Shown: one piece after another, positions 1 through 12,650 of the stretch
Layout: the number at the start of each line of letters is the position of its first letter
Numbering within the stretch: position 1 is the first letter of the stretch
DNA from: Deltaproteobacteria bacterium SG8_13
Lineage (GTDB): Bacteria; Desulfobacterota; Desulfobacteria; Desulfobacterales; SG8-13
Direction of reading: 5' to 3'
NCBI GenBank assembly: GCA_001303025.1
Contig: LJNK01000001.1
Coordinates: forward strand, 41-64,040
Length of the DNA: 64,000 bases
The notes under the pieces: model-generated
What the model was told of the DNA's origin: nothing
Seen by the model: the letters and a program-made list of their open reading frames with translations, nothing else
Databases searched by the model: none
Translations under genes and position numbers: made by a program

Positions 1-1256
1 AAATCCTGGGAGCCGGCGAAAATGAGGGGGTTGTTGGTGGAAGAGTTCATTTCGGTTTCGAGCACCTGGCGGGCATGGGCGATCGCATCCCGACTGCCGC
101 CGTGCACCTGCGGTGAGCATCGCAGGGTATAGGCATCCTGGATCCGCCCGCAGTCCTTGTGAGAGGAGATGATTTCACTGTTTTCGATGAGGCGGTCCAT
201 GTTGTCGGCAGCGGCTCGCTGGCCGGGGTGAGGTCGGACCTGGTGGATGCGTGCATCGAATTCCGTGCGGCTGCCGAGGAGCACCTCCAGGCTCATGGCG
301 GCGGCCACGTCGATCATCTTCGCCAGCCGGATCGCATCGTAAAGGGCCAGCCCCCCGACGGCGGTCATGACCTGGGTGCCGTTGACCAGAGCCAGCCCTT
401 CACCGGATTGTAGCCGGATCGGCTTAAGGCCGCACTGCCGAAGGGCGGCAGCTCCCGATAACCGCTGTCCTCGAAACAGGGCTTCTCCGCGGCCGATCAG
501 CACCAGCGCCAGGTGCGCCAGCGGCGCCAGGTCACCGCTGGCTCCCACCGATCCCTGCTGGGGGACGATGGGGCACACACCGCGGTTGAGCAACGCCGCC
601 AGCTGGCGAACCGTCTTCAGGCGGATGCCCGAATGTCCCCTGGCCAGGTCCTTGATTCGCAGGGCCATCGTGGCCCGGACGACCTCCGGGTCGAACGGAG
701 GCCCCACTCCGCTGGAGTGGCTCATCAGGATGTTTTCCTGCAGCCGGCGGGTGTCCTTGGCGGATATGCTGACGTCGCTCAGCGCGCCGAAGCCGGTCGT
801 TATACCATAGATGGCCCGGTTTTCCTTCACCCAGCGGTCCACCAGCTGCCGGGAGCTGCGGATGCGTCGGACTGAATTTTCCGTCAATGTGACTTGCGCC
901 CCGTGGCGGGCCACGGCGACAAGATCCTCGAGCGCCAGCCCGTCGAATCCCAACGCCACCTTTTTTTTCAGGGGACGGATTTCCAGCATGGCGGCGACCG
1001 GTTTGCGCGGTGACACAAAAGTGCCGACCCCCTGCACGCGGATCAGGTACCCCTCGGCTGCCAGTTCGCGCAGCGCTCGATGGACCGTCATCCGCGAAAC
1101 GCCCAAGGCGGGCACCAGCTCGTTTTCGGAAGGAATCCGGTCTTCGGGCGGCCATTCGCCGGAGACGATGCGCTGCTTGATGATTTTCTTCACCTTTTTA
1201 AACAGCGGTCCGGGGAAACCGGCAAGCGGGTTGTCGGTCGGGTTTTTGGGTTTCAT
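1..1256 (-). CDS. hutH: Histidine ammonia-lyase with an in-frame N-terminal GntR/HutC-type winged-HTH extension; the 3' end runs off the window
   Basis: I translated the minus strand from the ATG at 1256. The ORF is absent from the track because it has no stop inside the window. It begins MKPKNPTDNPLAGFPGPLFKKVKKIIKQRIVSGEWPPEDRIPSENELVPALGVSRMTVHRALRELAAEGYLIRVQGVGTFV, which looks like a HutC-type wHTH. It continues without a stop into LALEDLVAVARHGAQV...YGITTGFGAL...QQGSVGASGDLAPLAHLALVLIG, which carries the MIO-forming ASG triad of HAL/PAL enzymes. I checked the frame codon by codon from 1256 down to about 480. Confidence 0.85.
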   Translation of the reverse strand, partial: MKPKNPTDNPLAGFPGPLFKKVKKIIKQRIVSGEWPPEDRIPSENELVPALGVSRMTVHRALRELAAEGYLIRVQGVGTFVSPRKPVAAMLEIRPLKKKVALGFDGLALEDLVAVARHGAQVTLTENSVRRIRSSRQLVDRWVKENRAIYGITTGFGALSDVSISAKDTRRLQENILMSHSSGVGPPFDPEVVRATMALRIKDLARGHSGIRLKTVRQLAALLNRGVCPIVPQQGSVGASGDLAPLAHLALVLIGRGEALFRGQRLSGAAALRQCGLKPIRLQSGEGLALVNGTQVMTAVGGLALYDAIRLAKMIDVAAAMSLEVLLGSRTEFDARIHQVRPHPGQRAAADNMDRLIENSEIISSHKDCGRIQDAYTLRCSPQVHGGSRDAIAHARQVLETEMNSSTNNPLIFAGSQD

Positions 1257-1305
1257 AACTGCCTGCAGTTTGCCGTTGAAGTTGACAGCGGGGCGGCGAG
1301 ACGAC

Positions 1306-1324
1306 TATACAACCATATACAACC
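1306..1324. promoter_or_regulatory. Tandem direct repeat TATACAACC-a-TATACAACC in the hutH/hutU divergent intergenic region; candidate HutC-type operator
   Basis: There are two exact 9-bp copies, at 1306-1314 and 1316-1324, one helical turn apart. They lie inside the 247-bp divergent region 1257-1503. The opposite strand reads GGTTGTATA, which contains a TGTATA element like those in GntR/HutC operators. The function is inferred only. Confidence 0.3.
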
Positions 1325-1503
1325 GATGGGAACCCGTCAACCCGAAACTCTTCATTGAACCGGCCGCTGCAATTCGATATGGTGAAACAGACCAGGGAGC
1401 TTCACAGCGAGCGGCAACGCATCGCTTGGCTTCTCATCAACTGCACGCCGTATTCAGAAACGATCCGTTTCCCATAGGGTCGATCCGCAAAAAGGAGCCA
1501 GCC

Positions 1504-3405
1504 ATGGACAACCAAACGATTGCCGGGGCCATGACGATCCGGCTCGACGCCCTGTTCGACAGCCTGCCGCCCGAGCCGCAGTTTGAGCAGGGCATTCGTC
1601 GGGCCCCCAAAAGAGGCTTTGCACTCAATCGCGCGGAAACCGCACTCGCTTTGAGAAATGCGCTGCGGTATATCCCGGAAAAGTGGCAGCCGCAACTGGC
1701 GCCGGAATTTCTGACCGAACTGATGACCCGGGGCCGGGTGTACGGGTATCGTTTCCGGCCGCAGGGGCGTTTGCGGGGGCTATCGGTTGATACCTACCGG
1801 GGTGCGTGCATCGAAGGGCGCGCATTTCAGGTGATGATTGACAACAACCTCGATTTTGACATCGCGCTGTATCCTTACGAACTGGTGACTTACGGGGAAA
1901 CCGGGCAGGTCTGCCAGAACTGGATGCAGTACAACTTGATCAAGCGCTACCTGGAAATCTTGACCCGCGAGCAGACGCTGGTGGTGGCATCCGGTCACCC
2001 GTTGGGGCTGTTTGCGTCTTCTGCTCAGGCACCGCGGGTGATCATCACCAACGCCATGATGGTCGGCGCCTTCGACGATCAGCAGAACTGGCAGCGGGCG
2101 GCAGCGCTGGGCGTGGCAAACTACGGGCAGATGACCGCCGGCGGCTGGATGTATATCGGACCCCAGGGGATCGTTCACGGAACCTACAGCACCATTCTAA
2201 ATGCCGGGCGGCTCAAGCTGAACCTGCCGGTGGACGGAAATCTGGCCGGCCGGCTGTTCGTATCTTCCGGTCTGGGAGGGATGAGCGGTGCCCAGGGCAA
2301 GGCCGTCGAAATTGCCGGTGGTGTCGGCATCATCGCCGAGGTCGATCGCTCCCGGATCGACACCCGCCTGAACCAGGGATGGGTGCGGGAGGTCTGCGAC
2401 AGCCCTCGGGAGGCGTTTGCGCTGGCCGCCCGATTTCAGAAAGAGAAAAAGCCGGCCGCCATCGCCTTTTGCGGCAACATCGTCGACTTGCTGGAAACAG
2501 CGGCCGCAGAGCGGCACCGCATCGATCTGCTGTCGGATCAGACTTCCTGCCACGCAGTTTACGACGGCGGCTATTGTCCCCAGGGGCTGACCTTTGAGCA
2601 GCGCACCGAAATGTTGAAGACCGACCCGGACGGCTTCCGGGCAGCGGTGGACCGTTCTCTCAAGCGCCACTTCGAGCTGGTTCACCAGCTGGTGCAGCAG
2701 GGTGTTTATTTTTTCGACTACGGCAACAGTTTCATGAAAGCCGTCTGCGATGCCGGTGTCTCCGCTATCTGTAAAAACGGCAAAGACCCCATGGACGGCT
2801 TTATCTTTCCGTCTTATGTTGAAGACATTATGGGCCCGCTGCTTTTCGATTACGGGTACGGGCCATTTCGATGGGTCTGCCTGAGCGGCAAGCAGGAAGA
2901 TCTTCGGAAAACCGATCAGGCGGCCATGGACTGTATCGATCCGCAGGGTCGATTTCAGGACCGGGACAATTATGTGTGGATCCGGGATGCCGAACACCAC
3001 CGACTGGTGGTCGGCACACAGGCCCGCATCCTCTATCAGGATGCGATGGGCCGCATGAAGATCGCCTTGAAGTTTAACGGAATGGTGCGCAGCGGCGATA
3101 TCGGCCCGGTCATGCTGGGCAGGGATCACCACGATACCGGCGGGACGGATTCTCCGTTTCGGGAAACAGCGAACATCTATGACGGCAGCAACATCATGGC
3201 CGACATGGCCGTTCACTGTTTTGCGGGAAATGCGGCCCGGGGGATGAGCCTGGTCGCCCTGCACAACGGCGGCGGGGTGGGCATCGGCAACGCCGTCAAC
3301 GGTGGATTCGGCCTGGTGCTCGACGGCAGCGACCGGGCGGATCGGGTCGTTCGGCAGGCGATCCCCTGGGATGTGATGGTCGGGCGCCGGATACAACCTC
3401 GCTAG
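1504..3405 (+). CDS. hutU: Urocanate hydratase (long form, 633 aa)
   Basis: The true start is the internal ATG of track ORF 811..3405 (MDNQTIAGAMTIRLD...). Diagnostic stretches are YGETGQVCQNWMQY, GQMTAGGWMYIGPQGIVHGTY, GLGGMSGAQGKA and RDHHDTGGTDSPFRET. The upstream 231 aa of the track ORF are antisense to hutH and the intergenic DNA. Confidence 0.95.
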   Translation: MDNQTIAGAMTIRLDALFDSLPPEPQFEQGIRRAPKRGFALNRAETALALRNALRYIPEKWQPQLAPEFLTELMTRGRVYGYRFRPQGRLRGLSVDTYRGACIEGRAFQVMIDNNLDFDIALYPYELVTYGETGQVCQNWMQYNLIKRYLEILTREQTLVVASGHPLGLFASSAQAPRVIITNAMMVGAFDDQQNWQRAAALGVANYGQMTAGGWMYIGPQGIVHGTYSTILNAGRLKLNLPVDGNLAGRLFVSSGLGGMSGAQGKAVEIAGGVGIIAEVDRSRIDTRLNQGWVREVCDSPREAFALAARFQKEKKPAAIAFCGNIVDLLETAAAERHRIDLLSDQTSCHAVYDGGYCPQGLTFEQRTEMLKTDPDGFRAAVDRSLKRHFELVHQLVQQGVYFFDYGNSFMKAVCDAGVSAICKNGKDPMDGFIFPSYVEDIMGPLLFDYGYGPFRWVCLSGKQEDLRKTDQAAMDCIDPQGRFQDRDNYVWIRDAEHHRLVVGTQARILYQDAMGRMKIALKFNGMVRSGDIGPVMLGRDHHDTGGTDSPFRETANIYDGSNIMADMAVHCFAGNAARGMSLVALHNGGGVGIGNAVNGGFGLVLDGSDRADRVVRQAIPWDVMVGRRIQPR

Positions 3406-3511
3406 AAAAGAGACGGACCACATCACGCTGCCGTATACGGCTGACGACGAACTGGTCAGAGCGTGTGTCGACCAGGCCTTTTCTTCGAAGTAAAAGGAGA
3501 GCTTGCTGGCA

Positions 3512-4408
3512 ATGAATAAAATCATCGAATGCGTGCCCAATTTCAGTGAAGGGCGCGATGCGGAAACCGTTGATAAGATCATCGACGCCTTCCGGGGGCA
3601 GCAGCAGGTCAAACTGCTCGACTACCAGCTGGATAAGGATCATAACCGATCGGTGGTCACGGTGGTCGGGCAACCCGATGCGCTGAAAAAAGCCGTCATC
3701 GGCGCGGTCGCTGAGGCTGTCGAACGAATCGACATGCGCAAACACCAGGGACAGCATCCGCGCATGGGCGCTGTGGATGTCGTCCCGTTCATTCCGGTGA
3801 AAAATATCACCATGGATGAAGTGGTGACGTTTTCCCGGCAGGTGGCGGAAGAGATCGGCCAAACCTTTCAATTGCCCGTGTTTCTCTACGAAGCCTCGGC
3901 TGCGCGGCCCCAGCGGCAGAACCTGGCAGCCATCCGCAAAGGGCAGTTCGAAGGGATGGAAGCAAAGCTGAAAGATCCTGTCTGGAAGCCGGATTTCGGC
4001 CCGGCTCAGGTTCACCCGACAGCGGGGGTAACGGCCGTTGGCGCGCGCATGCCGCTGGTGGCCTACAATGTAAACCTGGACACCGACAAGCTGGAGATTG
4101 CCGATGCCATTGCCAAAAAGGTCCGCCACATCAGTGGAGGGCTCCGGTACTGCAAAGCGCTTGGCATTGAGATGCAAGACCGCGGGCTGGTGCAGGTTTC
4201 CATCAACATGACCGACTACACCAGAACTGCCCTGTACCGGGTTTTCGAGCTGATCCGGATCGAAGCCCGGCGCTACGGGGTAAATATCGTCGGCAGCGAA
4301 ATTGTCGGCCTGGTGCCGATGGGCGCCCTGATCGACTCCGCGGCCTTTTACCTGGGGCTGGAGGGCTTTTCCATGGACCAGGTGCTGGAGTACCGGATAT
4401 ACGAATAG
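3512..4408 (+). CDS. Glutamate formimidoyltransferase (FtcD N-terminal-type, stand-alone)
   Basis: The product begins MNKIIECVPNFSEGRDAETVDKII and contains HPRMGAVDVVPF, both typical of formiminotransferase. I preferred the ATG at 3512 (GGAG at 3496-3499) over the TTG at 3503 used by the track. Confidence 0.9.
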   Translation: MNKIIECVPNFSEGRDAETVDKIIDAFRGQQQVKLLDYQLDKDHNRSVVTVVGQPDALKKAVIGAVAEAVERIDMRKHQGQHPRMGAVDVVPFIPVKNITMDEVVTFSRQVAEEIGQTFQLPVFLYEASAARPQRQNLAAIRKGQFEGMEAKLKDPVWKPDFGPAQVHPTAGVTAVGARMPLVAYNVNLDTDKLEIADAIAKKVRHISGGLRYCKALGIEMQDRGLVQVSINMTDYTRTALYRVFELIRIEARRYGVNIVGSEIVGLVPMGALIDSAAFYLGLEGFSMDQVLEYRIYE

Positions 4409-4473: not shown

Positions 4474-5748
4474 GTGCCCAACGGAAACATCATCATCAAA
4501 AATGCATCCGAATTGGTGACCTGCAGCGGTTTCAGGGCCAAATGCGGCGCGGAGATGTCCGACCTGCGCGTCATCGACAGCGGCGCGGTTGTCATCCGCA
4601 ACGGGGTGATCCAGGCGGTGGGACCCAGCGGACAGGCGCTGGCGGGCGTGGACGAATCCGACTTCAGCGTAATCGATGCTTCCGGCAAGGCCGTGCTGCC
4701 GGGCTTTGTCGATTCGCACACCCACCTGGTGTTCGGCGGTTACCGCGCCGAAGAATTCGGCTGGCGGCTGCGGGGCGACAGTTACATGGAGATCATGCAG
4801 CGCGGCGGCGGAATCGTCAATACGGTCGACGCCACCCGCAAGGCATCCCGGCAGCAGCTGGTGGACTCCGGCATGCGCCGCCTCGACAGCATGCTCTCCT
4901 TCGGTGTAACCACCGTTGAAGGCAAGAGCGGCTACGGGCTGGACCGGGATACGGAGATCAAGCAGCTCGAAGCAATGCGCGAGTTAAACCGGCTTCACCC
5001 GGTAGAGGTGGTGCCCACCTTTTTGGGCGCCCACGCCGTACCGGGCGATTACAAGGGGCGCGAAGATGCGTTCATCGACCTGCTGATCACCGATGTCATG
5101 CCGCTGGCTGCCGCCGGAGGGTTGTCAGAGTTTTGCGATGTCTTTTGCGAAAGGGGGGTGTTCTCCATCGAGCAGTCCCGCCGGCTGTTGTTGAAAGCCC
5201 GCGAGATGGGACTGAAGCTGAAGCTGCACGCCGACGAGATCGTGCGGCTCGGAGGAGCCGAGCTGGCAGCCGAACTCGGTGCGGTGTCGGCCGATCACCT
5301 GCTGCAAGCCTCCGACGAGGGAATCGACCGGCTGGCTGCAGCCGGTGTTATCGCCACATTGTTGCCGGGTACGGCCTTCAGTCTCCGCGAGCCATACGCC
5401 AGGGCACGCACCATGATCGATAGAGGCTGTGCGGTTGCGCTGGCCACCGACTTCAACCCCGGCAGCTGTTTCACCGAATCGATTCCGCTGATCCTGGCGC
5501 TGGCCACGCTGCACATGAACATTACCACCGAGGAAGCAATCACGGCCATGACGATCAACGGGGCGGCCGCCCTTAACCGGGCGGAAACCATCGGCAGCCT
5601 AGATGTCGGCAAGCAGGGCGATCTGATCGTTCTGGAATTCCCATCCTACCATTTCATCCCTTATCACATCGGTGTCAGCACAGTGGAAAAGGTCATCAAG
5701 GGCGGCCGGGTGGTATTTGAAAAAACGGCTGCAAAGGAGGCAATCTAA
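4474..5748 (+). CDS. hutI: Imidazolonepropionase
   Basis: GTG start. The product carries amidohydrolase motifs (PGFVDSHTHLVFGG, KLHADE, ATDFNPGS), and its length and context fit HutI. Confidence 0.95.
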   Translation: MPNGNIIIKNASELVTCSGFRAKCGAEMSDLRVIDSGAVVIRNGVIQAVGPSGQALAGVDESDFSVIDASGKAVLPGFVDSHTHLVFGGYRAEEFGWRLRGDSYMEIMQRGGGIVNTVDATRKASRQQLVDSGMRRLDSMLSFGVTTVEGKSGYGLDRDTEIKQLEAMRELNRLHPVEVVPTFLGAHAVPGDYKGREDAFIDLLITDVMPLAAAGGLSEFCDVFCERGVFSIEQSRRLLLKAREMGLKLKLHADEIVRLGGAELAAELGAVSADHLLQASDEGIDRLAAAGVIATLLPGTAFSLREPYARARTMIDRGCAVALATDFNPGSCFTESIPLILALATLHMNITTEEAITAMTINGAAALNRAETIGSLDVGKQGDLIVLEFPSYHFIPYHIGVSTVEKVIKGGRVVFEKTAAKEAI

Positions 5749-6366
5749 ATGCTGGCAGATCTGGGAATCAAAGAGTTTGTCGATCAAACCGCTTCATCGA
5801 AGCCGGTGCCCGGCGGCGGCAGTGCAGCCGCCCTGAGCGGAGCGCTGGCAGCCGGATTGACGGAAATGGTGGCCGGCCTGACAATCGGGCGCAAGGGATT
5901 CGAAGCTGTCGAATCCGATATGCAGCGCATCGCAGAAGAAGCCGGCGAGCTTCGCAAAAAGTGTCTGCAGAATATCGATCGCGACTCGGATGCCTATACC
6001 GGCGTCATCGATGCGTTTCGGCTGCCCAAAAGCAGCCCAGAAGAGAAAAATACGCGTAAACTAGCCATCCAGACAGCCTTGCAGCATGCCAGCCGGGTTC
6101 CACTGGAAACCGCTGAACTGGCCGCACGGGTCATCGAGCTGGCCGGGCAGGTGGTCGCCAAGGGAAATCCAAACGCCGTCACCGACGGAGCGGTGGCCGG
6201 CATGCTGGCCCGAACGGCCGTACTGGCCGGTGCCATGAATGTCCGGATCAACCTGGCCACTATCGAGGACCGCGATTTCACCGCCAGACTGGCCGGACAG
6301 GTGGATGAGCTGGAGGCGAGAGCCAAGAAGGTGGAGCAGGAACTGTTGGCCGGCTTGAAGTTGTAA
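5749..6366 (+). CDS. Formimidoyltetrahydrofolate cyclodeaminase (FtcD C-terminal-type, stand-alone)
   Basis: The ATG directly abuts the hutI stop. The motif KPVPGGGSAAALSGALAAGL is typical of the cyclodeaminase family, the predicted protein is about 205 aa and appears mostly alpha-helical. Confidence 0.85.
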   Translation: MLADLGIKEFVDQTASSKPVPGGGSAAALSGALAAGLTEMVAGLTIGRKGFEAVESDMQRIAEEAGELRKKCLQNIDRDSDAYTGVIDAFRLPKSSPEEKNTRKLAIQTALQHASRVPLETAELAARVIELAGQVVAKGNPNAVTDGAVAGMLARTAVLAGAMNVRINLATIEDRDFTARLAGQVDELEARAKKVEQELLAGLKL

Positions 6367-6514: not shown

Positions 6515-7732
6515 ATGATGATCCCGTCATTGTACTACCTGGATCGTTACAGAAATGAAGGCACCAGAACCTACAGTGTTCACGCCGATTTTACGGAGGC
6601 GCAGCAACCCTACCGGCCCGATTCGAAACACTCCCGATTTGCGCTGCCGTCCTTCGAGGTTCCCCGCGATCAAATGCTGGTCTATACAGCCCACCCATCC
6701 GTTGAACTGCAACAGACCTATCTGAGAGCCGAAACGGTTCTGTTTTGCATCCACCCGCAGGTGCTTGAACACTATCCCGACGATCCATACATTAAGCGAA
6801 CACTGTCCATCGGAACCCCGTGCGGCGGTATCGCCGTGGCGCCGAGCTCCTCGACGAGGACGCTTTACGTCGACGACGACAACCCCCCGCATGCCGTCAA
6901 GGTGCATTTCCCGTTCCGGATTTCGCGCTACCACCGCCGCATGCGCCAGGAAGTTGTCGAGCAGGCGGTCGTCGTCTCCAGGGAGCTCGAAAGGGCGGTG
7001 GGGTGTTTAGACGATCGGTTTGCCTTTTGCAGGGAGGTCATCGGTTTGGTGCACAAAGACCTGCAGCCGGAAACTCCCCGCGGCGAGAATTGGGGGTATC
7101 TGGTCCGGGACATGCAGCCGTTTCCGGTCGCCGCCGCCGAGCGAAATCTCGTTCCCGGGTTTTCGCTGTACGGCACGGATTTTTTTGAACCCGCAACCAC
7201 CCCGCTGCTGTTTGAGCTGATGGGAAACAAGGACCCCCGGGAATTTGTCCTCAACGAGATCATGATCCCCATTATCCGACACTGGGTCGGCTGTTTCCAA
7301 CATTTCGGCTACCTGCTCGAACCCCACGGTCAGAATGTGCTGCTGGAGGTAAATAAAGATCTGGATATTACCCGGATCGTCCATCGGGATTTGAGCATTG
7401 GTATCGATATGAGGCGTCGGCGTGAACGGAACCTTCCGGATGGAAACCTGAATGCCTACAATCGGATGGAAACCGACGAATTTCACAGCATCGTCTATGA
7501 CATGTTCATGGGGGGCCACTTTTTTGACCGCCTGGTGGCGCTTTGCCTGGAAAAGTATCCGAACCTCCAAAAGGAGGACTTCTGCAGACCCTGTCGCGAT
7601 GAGTTCGCACGGATTTTGCCCGACCACGAAAAGTATTTCCCCAAGACCATTCAGTACTTCAGCGAAAAGCGGGATCGTTTCGGGAAGCCACTTTTTGAAG
7701 ATACGGGAAAGGCGCCGCAGTGGCGGCCATAA
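6515..7732 (+). CDS. Divergent, short IucA/IucC-like (NIS-synthetase-like) protein; function unknown
   Basis: Three stretches echo conserved IucA/IucC blocks. CIHPQV resembles HPWQ, SSSTRTL...AVKVHFPFRISRYHRRM resembles the R-T-L / K-l-s-l-x-x-R block, and YLLEPHGQNVLLE resembles EaHGQN. At 405 aa it is much shorter than the usual roughly 600 aa. The coding call is strong but the family call is tentative. Confidence 0.45.
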   Translation: MMIPSLYYLDRYRNEGTRTYSVHADFTEAQQPYRPDSKHSRFALPSFEVPRDQMLVYTAHPSVELQQTYLRAETVLFCIHPQVLEHYPDDPYIKRTLSIGTPCGGIAVAPSSSTRTLYVDDDNPPHAVKVHFPFRISRYHRRMRQEVVEQAVVVSRELERAVGCLDDRFAFCREVIGLVHKDLQPETPRGENWGYLVRDMQPFPVAAAERNLVPGFSLYGTDFFEPATTPLLFELMGNKDPREFVLNEIMIPIIRHWVGCFQHFGYLLEPHGQNVLLEVNKDLDITRIVHRDLSIGIDMRRRRERNLPDGNLNAYNRMETDEFHSIVYDMFMGGHFFDRLVALCLEKYPNLQKEDFCRPCRDEFARILPDHEKYFPKTIQYFSEKRDRFGKPLFEDTGKAPQWRP

Positions 7733-11982: not shown

Positions 11983-12650
11983 ATGAAATGTCAAGCTTCT
12001 GTAAAGTTCATTCACCGGCTTTTGTGCGGGAAGGGGTCGATTAGGTAAAATTTCAGTGAGTTGTATACAAGCTGTTCAGACGAATATTTTGTCTATAAAC
12101 AGGATTATTCGTGATGAACTGCCGGATGAGAGTGTCTGGTTTTATGAAAAAATCCCCATCCAAACAACTCCACAGCCGGGGGGATGCCTCTGTGTCGCCT
12201 ATCAACGCATTCGAAAATTTGGAATCGCGATAAAAGAATTTTGCGGCAAACCTGTCCAAGGCAGAGCAGCGATGCGCGTCTTCGGTATCGTTGTTTGTGG
12301 AAACGTTTGTGCACAGCAGACGTGCCGCAGGGCCATTGCAATTGCCGGTGCCGGCATCAAAAAAAATCAGTCCAAAAACCGTTCCTGCAATGATAAAAAC
12401 AGCAGGTCTTGGACAACCTTGCCGTCACACCGACGCAACATTCAAAGGAAAAGCGCTGTTTGGATTGAAAAATACCACTATCGTGAACGTTGAGAAGTGT
12501 AATCTTCTGCGGTGCTTTTCATTTGGGTGAAAAAAAGAAAAGTGCAATCCTGCTGATGAAGACTGCAATTTTTTACATTATACACGCCCACTGCCTGCAG
12601 TGGCTAACCGTTGTTTTCGATTCGCCAAACGCTTTCAGGCGATCATTGCG

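Follow-up and report, generated by a model that had tools for sequence, protein, structure and literature searches.

The sequence studied is a 64-kb stretch of DNA from Deltaproteobacteria bacterium SG8_13 (the window), at the start of which a single minus-strand reading frame joins the DNA-binding domain of the repressor HutC, a winged helix-turn-helix (wHTH), to histidine ammonia-lyase (HAL, the product of hutH). The frame has a stop 10 codons upstream of the ATG at position 1256, after which 418 codons are open (translation of positions 3–1256); the open reading frame extends beyond the window at position 1, about 40 nt short of the end of the source contig. Pfam assigned residues 20–81 to GntR (PF00392, E = 9e-22) and residues 107–412 to Lyase_aromatic (PF00221, E = 5e-135). 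The NCBIfam HutC model TIGR02018 matches residues 20–101 with its positions 2–83 of 226 (E = 3.5e-30), and position 3 of the hutH model TIGR01225 aligns to residue 102. The PF00392 and TIGR02018 matches bear out an earlier sequence-only reading, which had proposed a HutC-type N-terminal DNA-binding domain beginning at ATG 1256. The same reading had the frame run without a stop into a full HAL; the uninterrupted frame holds, but the window contains only about 320 of the approximately 509 HAL residues, the domain being complete in homologs of 605 residues. TIGR01225 scores 418 bits for the window protein against a curated cut-off of 539, because only model positions 3–317 of 506 lie in the window.

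The HutC and HutH model matches follow each other without a gap, and UTRA, the effector domain of HutC, is therefore missing: Pfam found no match to UTRA (PF07702) in the window fusion protein, and HAL begins at residues 99–107. Since UTRA is absent, the fusion protein falls outside the HutC subfamily as it is defined. The Pfam search returned no aminotransferase domain in the fusion protein either, its C-terminal domain being Lyase_aromatic. Canonical HutC proteins align to the fusion up to residues 100–101, and CTG 969–971 stands where the ancestral hutH start codon was. A tblastn search revealed no second HutC-like or HAL-like sequence in the 64-kb window, so that the fused gene is the only hutH found in the complete hut locus of the window, and no separate hutC was found in the window or in the flanks of related fused loci.

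The enzyme portion carries the expected catalytic machinery. The Ala-Ser-Gly triad of the 4-methylideneimidazole-5-one (MIO) cofactor, predicted at about 532–540, is present in the motif GSVGASGDL, with its exact place at 534–542. When the 88%-identical homolog P0001 was aligned to Pseudomonas putida HAL (1GKM), residues Y53, H83, ASG, N195, Y280, R283, F329, and E414 were all found to be conserved; those up to R283 lie within the 418 residues of the window, whereas F329 and E414 lie beyond its end and are known from full-length homologs. The AlphaFold model of P0001 predicts a folded head of three helices and two strands (order H-H-H-E-E), with mean predicted local distance difference test (pLDDT) values of 71–89 in blocks of 10 residues over residues 11–80, a linker with values below 50 at residues 85–89, and a confident HAL core. 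Low confidence recurs at residues 153–161, a loop located just after the catalytic tyrosine (Tyr 150). The public NCBI protein P0014, 100% identical to the window fusion, is labelled "histidine ammonia-lyase, partial" and begins at Met90, so the DNA-binding domain is invisible in the public annotation; P0014 ends 13 residues past the end of the window because the contig ends there.

Among 5.8 billion protein clusters searched, 17 carry the fused architecture, far more than chance would produce. The complete ones are 601–612 residues long and 51–88% identical. Thirteen of the 17 are 83–88% identical and contain both Pfam domains (12 of these 13 are complete at 605 residues), and four more distant clusters of 601–612 residues were recovered (P0016, P0017, P0019, and P0065). 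The clusters come from ENA, NCBI, JGI, and Logan assemblies, and a second search seeded with P0019 added no further fused cluster. A fusion-specific DNA pattern, composed of the HutC recognition-helix motif, the wing motif, and the HAL motif TTGFGAL 200–260 nt further on, matched five of five known fused loci and none of 83 other loci, which were mostly canonical hutC; in 241 million metagenome records it detected three loci, each of the same type as the window. A profile built on the N-terminal 159 residues found no fusion among 1.84 billion representatives clustered at 50% identity, a result uninformative about absence, as no fusion is itself a representative; the best match scored 145 bits, and the matches were HutC fragments and tandem-GntR proteins. 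In a word-indexed search the same profile listed canonical HutC only, omitting the known fusions, and supplied the closest unfused HutC proteins. A scan of genome contigs with at least 600 HutC pattern matches kept 80 loci, all matching query residues 1–128 only, and the nine loci inspected in readable form were all canonical hutC. In every fused locus with flanks, the gene is divergent from hutU–FTCD_N–hutI–FTCD_C. The 516-residue protein P0015, considered as a decayed fusion retaining HAL only, was rejected as such, since its contig ends 29 nt upstream and truncates what is a fusion. The JGI metagenome 3300042731, the source of the contigs of P0013, P0015, and P0285, contains, alongside the fused gene, a hutC that is canonical and belongs to the most closely related type, so that one community harbors fused and unfused forms alike.

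An assembly, frameshift, or gene-calling artefact joining two separate genes was weighed against these data. A homopolymer of eight adenines (A8) lies at positions 961–968, exactly at the domain junction (Lys97–Lys99), the gene is at a contig end, and NCBI annotated the HAL part only. However, about 150 UTRA codons cannot be removed by a frameshift, and homologs without the A8 run keep the same frame, so the run was rejected as a frameshift site and a junction artefact is excluded. An identical junction is moreover found in 17 clusters from different samples and assemblers that are only 51–88% identical. An artefact is thus exceedingly improbable and, on the sequence comparison, the fusion is genuine. 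The A8 run is itself not conserved (L002 has GTAAAAGGCAAG there) and is a likely hotspot of sequencing error or slippage in the SG8_13 genome only.

In what follows, clade A denotes the clade of the window, clade B includes loci L001, L083, and L085, and P0016 corresponds to locus L084. The proteins closest to the fused winged helix are HutC of the ordinary kind (GntR plus UTRA), from Desulfobacterales and relatives. One such unfused HutC, P0274, lies in locus L086, which is syntenic with the clade-B fusions L001 and L083: the four-gene hut operon is shared on one side and genes for a Rho-like ATPase and a chorismate mutase/prephenate dehydratase on the other, and a ferritin/rubrerythrin gene is present in both L086 and L001. 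In L086, a hutC of 249 codons is followed by a gap of 94 bp and a hutH of 510 codons. In a DNA alignment, one in-frame deletion of approximately 540 nt separates the fused loci from L086; it begins around hutC codon 100–105 and ends some 10 nt ahead of the hutH start, and the deleted stretch comprises UTRA and most of the hutC–hutH spacer. The order hutC then hutH recurs in L003 and L093, and on the contig of P0285 a canonical hutC is likewise followed by a gene, putatively in the same order. The linker of clade B, now highly variable, preserves residues from the first UTRA strand and helix. The alignments show that the fusion arose by in-frame deletion in an ancestral hutC–hutH pair, leaving the HutC winged helix and some 15 residues of linker in front of a HAL that is complete in other respects. 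Origin by deletion had been anticipated as one of two alternatives, the other being a sensor-repressor built on the enzyme. The deletion part stands, as the syntenic unfused L086 differs by this single event; the two readings are, however, not mutually exclusive.

The fused forms do not share a single origin in the trees. Neighbor-joining (distance) trees of the HAL domain with 300 bootstrap replicates recovered all fusions as monophyletic in 0 of 300 replicates. The HAL of clade A groups with the unfused P0059/P0066 (87–91% bootstrap), whereas clade B, P0016, and the unfused HALs of L086 and L093 form a group with 100% bootstrap, within which clade B pairs with unfused L086 (70–83%) and P0016 with unfused L093/P0390/P0392 (76%). 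Pairwise identities are in line with this picture: clade B is 84–86% identical in HAL and 73–91% in wHTH to its nearest unfused relatives (L086 HAL and P0271 HutC), clade A is 75–78% and 65–73% identical to its own (HAL-only proteins and P0285/P0297 HutC), and the two clades share 68–72% in HAL and 58–62% in wHTH. As the fusions are non-monophyletic and re-insertion of UTRA is implausible, at least two fusion events are required, and the trees, drawn for both domains, point to three as the probable number.

The clade-A genes are co-linear, and their divergence therefore postdates the fusion. A functionless extension of a reading frame is protected against stops and frameshifts, not against missense changes, and its ratio of non-synonymous to synonymous substitution rates (dN/dS) should approach 1. 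Across the 10 clade-A pairs, dN/dS was 0.06–0.15 for the wHTH (dS 0.58–1.03) and 0.09–0.17 for HAL, while the 19-codon linker gave values of at most 0.33 in nine of 10 pairs and 0.75 in the pair L002–L090. Between the window and L002 the wHTH has accumulated 12.5 non-synonymous versus 21.5 synonymous changes (Fisher p = 2e-7). Within an alignment of 16 sequences, the wHTH blocks RIPSE, SRMT, RALREL, and QGVGTFV are invariant, and the invariant R55 and G76 map without gaps to Arg48 and Gly69 of NagR/YvoA, of which the former contacts bases and the latter is a DNA-contacting wing residue (PMC4333415). By these measures, purifying selection acts on the clade-A winged helix as strongly as on the enzyme, and the fusion is maintained.

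The start codons of the clade-A genes were compared as well. The ancestral hutH ATG has become CTG, GTA, ATT, or CTC in clade A, where the residue aligned with the Met of the clade-B motif MKK is L, T, V, or I, and GTT in P0016 (L084). The only ATG near the junction had been described as lacking a Shine–Dalgarno sequence, which is confirmed by its upstream 20 nt (CGCGCAAACCGGTCGCCGCC); this Met90 is present in five of five clade-A DNA loci and is replaced by Ile in P0003 and P0004. With the ancestral start replaced and Met90 lost in these two proteins, clade-A HAL is left without a conserved start codon of its own, and every HAL subunit should consequently carry a DNA-binding head.

The intergenic region between the fusion gene and hutU contains a candidate operator. 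As the sequence-only reading had noted, tandem repeats occur in the divergent hutU promoter region: two copies of TATACAACC lie at 1306–1314 and 1316–1324, the only exact copies in the 64 kb. The 20-bp operator with its tandem GGTTGTATA half-sites is invariant at 20 of 20 positions in five clade-A loci with diverged flanks. The HutC operator consensus is TGTA-N2-TACA, and HutC binds hut promoters as dimers or tetramers and is released by urocanate (PMC12977541). At the position of the window repeats, a TTGTATA-like element, N3, and TTGTATATACAA are found in clade B as well as in the canonical loci L086 and L005; the P0016 locus has a perfect ACTTGTATATACAAGT, and the loci of clade B and P0016 keep a perfect palindrome. 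Since the window repeats share both the position and the TGTATA half-site of the HutC operator, they represent HutC half-sites. As read from this comparison, the window operator is derived from an ancestral HutC operator whose inverted partners have degenerated, so that two direct repeats spaced by one helical turn remain. Elsewhere in the window, TTGTATACAA at 12061–12070 consists of two HutC-type half-sites without the 2-bp spacer, in an AT-rich region between divergent open reading frames.

A promoter scan found two sites where 0.1 were expected, including one for the fusion gene whose -10 hexamer (1317–1312) lies inside the operator and whose -35 region (GTTGACGG) is invariant in the five clade-A loci. 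The putative hutU promoter, with its -10 hexamer in the first repeat, was read directly from the sequence; as its -10 has a base other than T at position 6, the scan did not report it. The block CGCTGTCAAC, at this putative promoter, is invariant in clade A, and a TGTCAA element occupies the corresponding position in four canonical loci (L086, L005, L068, and L003). As the operator overlaps the -10 of the fusion gene and the putative -10 of hutU, one bound protein would cover both. Alignment of the five clade-A intergenic regions revealed a strongly conserved fusion-proximal half, including GCAGGC before the fusion-gene ATG, and a poorly conserved hutU-proximal half. A 41-bp block at 1344–1384 (GAAACTCTTCATTGAACCGGCCGCTGCAATTCGATATGGTG on the plus strand), just upstream of the fusion-gene -35 and inside the putative hutU leader, is almost invariant in these regions while the rest of the hutU-proximal spacer varies; it may serve as a site for a second regulator. 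The hutU leader and the intergenic region gave no Rfam match and no conserved fold in alignment folding. Short tandem repeats absent from the window occur in clade-B loci, namely ATATCAA(A) near hutU (L001, 9800–9845; L083, ~5110–5160) and (TCAGTGA)x4 in the fusion-gene leader of L085 (~5790–5830). The coordinates of all features are collected in Table 1.

Table 1. Features of the fused gene, the divergent promoter region and the hut operon in the 64-kb window.
Feature	Position	Strand	Basis
hutC(wHTH)–hutH fusion gene, 5' 1256 nt (418 codons)	1..1256	-	Translation without stop; both Pfam domains in one frame
HutC-type winged helix (residues 20–81)	1014..1199	-	PF00392; TIGR02018 positions 2–83; predicted fold; dN/dS 0.06–0.15
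Linker (residues 82–96)	969..1013	-	HutC inter-domain linker and first UTRA strand (SPRKPVAAMLEIRPL); ends at CTG 969–971
HAL domain, N-terminal ~320 residues (residues 97–418)	1..968	-	PF00221; TIGR01225; MIO triad
Internal ATG (Met90)	987..989	-	Start in NCBI record; no Shine–Dalgarno
Candidate operator TATACAACC-A-TATACAACC-G (fusion strand: CGGTTGTATATGGTTGTATA)	1306..1325	.	Two direct HutC half-sites 10 bp apart
Promoter-like site of the fusion gene: -35 TTGACG (1340–1335), 17 nt, -10 TATGGT (1317–1312)	1312..1340	-	Promoter scan
Putative hutU promoter: -35 TTGACA (1282–1287), 18 nt, -10 TATACA (1306–1311, first repeat)	1282..1311	+	Sequence reading
hutU (urocanase), first gene of the divergent operon	1504..3405	+	Urocanase_N, Urocanase, Urocanase_C domains
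Glutamate formiminotransferase	3503–4408	+	FTCD_N/FTCD domains
hutI (imidazolonepropionase)	4474–5748	+	Amidohydro_1/3 domains
Formiminotetrahydrofolate cyclodeaminase	5749–6366	+	FTCD_C domain

The gene order of the hut operon is the same in all related loci. Directly after the operon, at 6515–7732, the window contains a gene for a 405-residue protein of the IucA/IucC family, an unexpected conserved neighbor of a histidine-degradation operon, as a gene of the same size and family also comes after the operon on the contig of P0013.

Considering the data as a whole, we favor, with a probability of roughly 55%, the explanation that the fusion gene encodes a bifunctional enzyme-repressor. The HAL homotetramer would replace UTRA as the oligomerization scaffold and present pairs of winged helices to the tandem half-sites; binding would block both promoters, such that the first enzyme of the pathway would repress its own gene together with hutU–FTCD–hutI. 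Such a dual role, as active enzyme and as sequence-specific regulator of its own pathway, is supported indirectly by the purifying selection on both domains and by the conserved operator at the promoter region. Repression could then be relieved when histidine or urocanate in the HAL active site repositions the heads, which is the least certain step and the one we favor. The mobile loop of the catalytic tyrosine is about 50 residues from the linker, and occupancy of the active site or turnover may move the N-terminal Tyr-loop region and the short conserved linker, releasing the winged helices from DNA. That HAL took over the sensing role of UTRA, which would make the protein a true PutA-like trigger enzyme created in one step by deletion of the effector domain, is a tentative, on balance doubtful, extension of this model.

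Several points weigh against the enzyme-repressor model. Repression would require two N-termini of the HAL tetramer to be placed on half-sites 10 bp apart. The second half of each palindrome is degenerate in the window, and neither site lies within two mismatches of TGTATATACA, so the binding geometry must differ from that of HutC; the overlapping -10 boxes could explain part of the operator conservation. The search for a separate hutC covered the 64-kb window and the locus flanks, and one may exist elsewhere in the carrier genomes. The fusion is also rare, with 17 of 5.8 billion clusters and three loci in 241 million metagenome records. Clade B retains the internal hutH ATG, with its Shine–Dalgarno sequence degraded in L001 and L083 and kept as GAGG in L085. 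Its wHTH, with dN/dS of 0.11–0.26, evolves 1.8–2.5 times faster than its HAL, compared with 0.67 times for the unfused pair L086/L093; clade B looks younger and less settled than clade A, with relaxed constraint. Finally, the clade-B descendant L092, whose HAL shares 95.6% identity with P0017 and falls within clade B at 100% support, has deleted the whole wHTH: positions 1440–1745 of this locus hold a stub reading frame of seven codons (MPKPVIY*), a linker remnant, and an intact operator, and HAL is read from the retained internal Shine–Dalgarno sequence and ATG. The winged helix is thus dispensable in some lineages.

The main rival to the enzyme-repressor model holds that HAL is a mere scaffold and that ligand control was lost with UTRA, leaving an autoregulator that cannot be induced through the fusion itself, with fixed, self-limiting hut expression and any induction provided by another factor. 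In its favor, UTRA as the sole known effector site is entirely deleted, the sequence gives no sign that the HAL active site is coupled to the head, the conserved 41-bp block could serve a second regulator, and complete loss of the head is tolerated in L092. However, a repressor that cannot be released would keep expression of a catabolic operon low in spite of plentiful histidine, and the clade-A linker, constrained in nine of 10 pairs, suggests a specific geometry over a passive tether; independent recurrence further suggests an advantage, without saying which. We regard this explanation as a serious one that is nonetheless rather unlikely. A second possibility is that the deletion simply destroyed the repressor, leaving the winged helix as a tolerated extension on its way to loss and the hut genes constitutive. 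The origin by deletion, the rarity of the family, the faster clade-B wHTH, and its headless descendant would all fit such a remnant. For the window's clade, where the sequence-only reading had raised it as an alternative, the idea nevertheless fails to account for a wHTH dN/dS as low as that of HAL (and still well below 1 in clade B), for the invariance of R55 and G76, the residues mapped to DNA contacts, for a 20-bp operator invariant beyond the need of the -10 hexamers, and for a HAL start codon that was lost and not restored. A functionless remnant is therefore unlikely in clade A. Internal initiation, in turn, could yield both free HAL and the fusion from one gene, and tetramers with zero to four heads would then tune repression by their ratio, not by ligand. 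The hutH ATG kept in clade B, the Shine–Dalgarno sequence of L085, the sufficiency of an internal start for the HAL-only gene of L092, and the retention of Met90 in all five clade-A DNA loci speak for two products; the replacement of the ancestral start in clade A and in L084, the lack of a Shine–Dalgarno sequence before Met90, and its change to Ile in P0003 and P0004 speak against them, and such a scheme seems very unlikely.

Full-text literature searches found no description of the HutC wHTH–HAL architecture, in agreement with the initial impression that it is uncharacterized. The usual view is that domain shuffling supplies bacterial one-component regulators with new sensors. In the present case, one in-frame deletion swapped a dedicated effector domain for the enzyme that makes the effector; the product was kept under selection, and the event took place at least twice. 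Should the fusion bind DNA, it would add a sixth type of partner domain to the GntR family. It would also illustrate, in a natural and very recent case, a possible origin of trigger enzymes such as PutA, for which the ancestral unfused state, the fusion, and its subsequent loss can all be compared. If HAL sensing also proves true, the same deletion having occurred two or three times independently, it would define an easily reached evolutionary route by which a metabolic enzyme becomes the sensor of its own operon. There is a lesson for annotation as well, as the public record of the fusion gene starts at an internal Met that hides the DNA-binding domain.

Compared with its two parents, the fusion is close to each in sequence and distinct in composition. 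The winged helix is HutC's own (TIGR02018 positions 2–83), 65–73% identical to canonical HutC of related Desulfobacterota, and the position of the promoter and operator and the half-site TGTATA are the same; in contrast, the urocanate-binding, dimerizing UTRA of HutC, with its chorismate-lyase fold, is replaced by an enzyme of 509 residues, and the clade-A operator is a direct repeat whereas that of HutC is a palindrome, TGTA-N2-TACA. With HutH, as represented by P. putida HAL (PDB 1GKM/1B8F), the fusion shares the full Lyase_aromatic domain, the ASG triad, and the catalytic and substrate residues, and its HAL is 75–78% identical to unfused HAL of Desulfobacterales. Unlike HutH, it has a 96-residue N-terminal DNA-binding extension and, in clade A, no start codon of its own. 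PutA is the classic trigger enzyme, the first proline-catabolic enzyme, with an N-terminal DNA-binding domain through which it represses a divergent promoter region. The fusion resembles it in logic, as a first catabolic enzyme with an N-terminal DNA-binding domain at a divergent promoter region, which it is predicted to repress; PutA, however, uses a ribbon-helix-helix and is released by flavin reduction and membrane binding, whereas the fusion has a GntR winged helix. Trigger enzymes and PutA are discussed in PMC5397151, as is the archaeal riboflavin kinase/regulator RbkR, a bifunctional protein with a fused DNA-binding domain that controls its own pathway and was found by comparative genomics. 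RbkR is likewise an enzyme with a fused DNA-binding domain, own-pathway regulation being predicted for the fusion, but the enzyme, the lineage of the domain, and the organisms differ. The MocR/GabR/PdxR regulators share with the fusion the arrangement of a GntR winged helix, a linker, and a large enzyme-fold domain, which in MocR supplies oligomerization and ligand binding (PMC5734734). Their C-terminal domains are, however, aminotransferase-like, ancient, widespread, and mostly non-catalytic, whereas the partner in the fusion is an unrelated MIO lyase, to judge from its residues the working enzyme of the pathway, and the fusion is young, rare, and recurrent. By analogy, the nearest known systems would thus be PutA and RbkR in logic and the MocR regulators in architecture.

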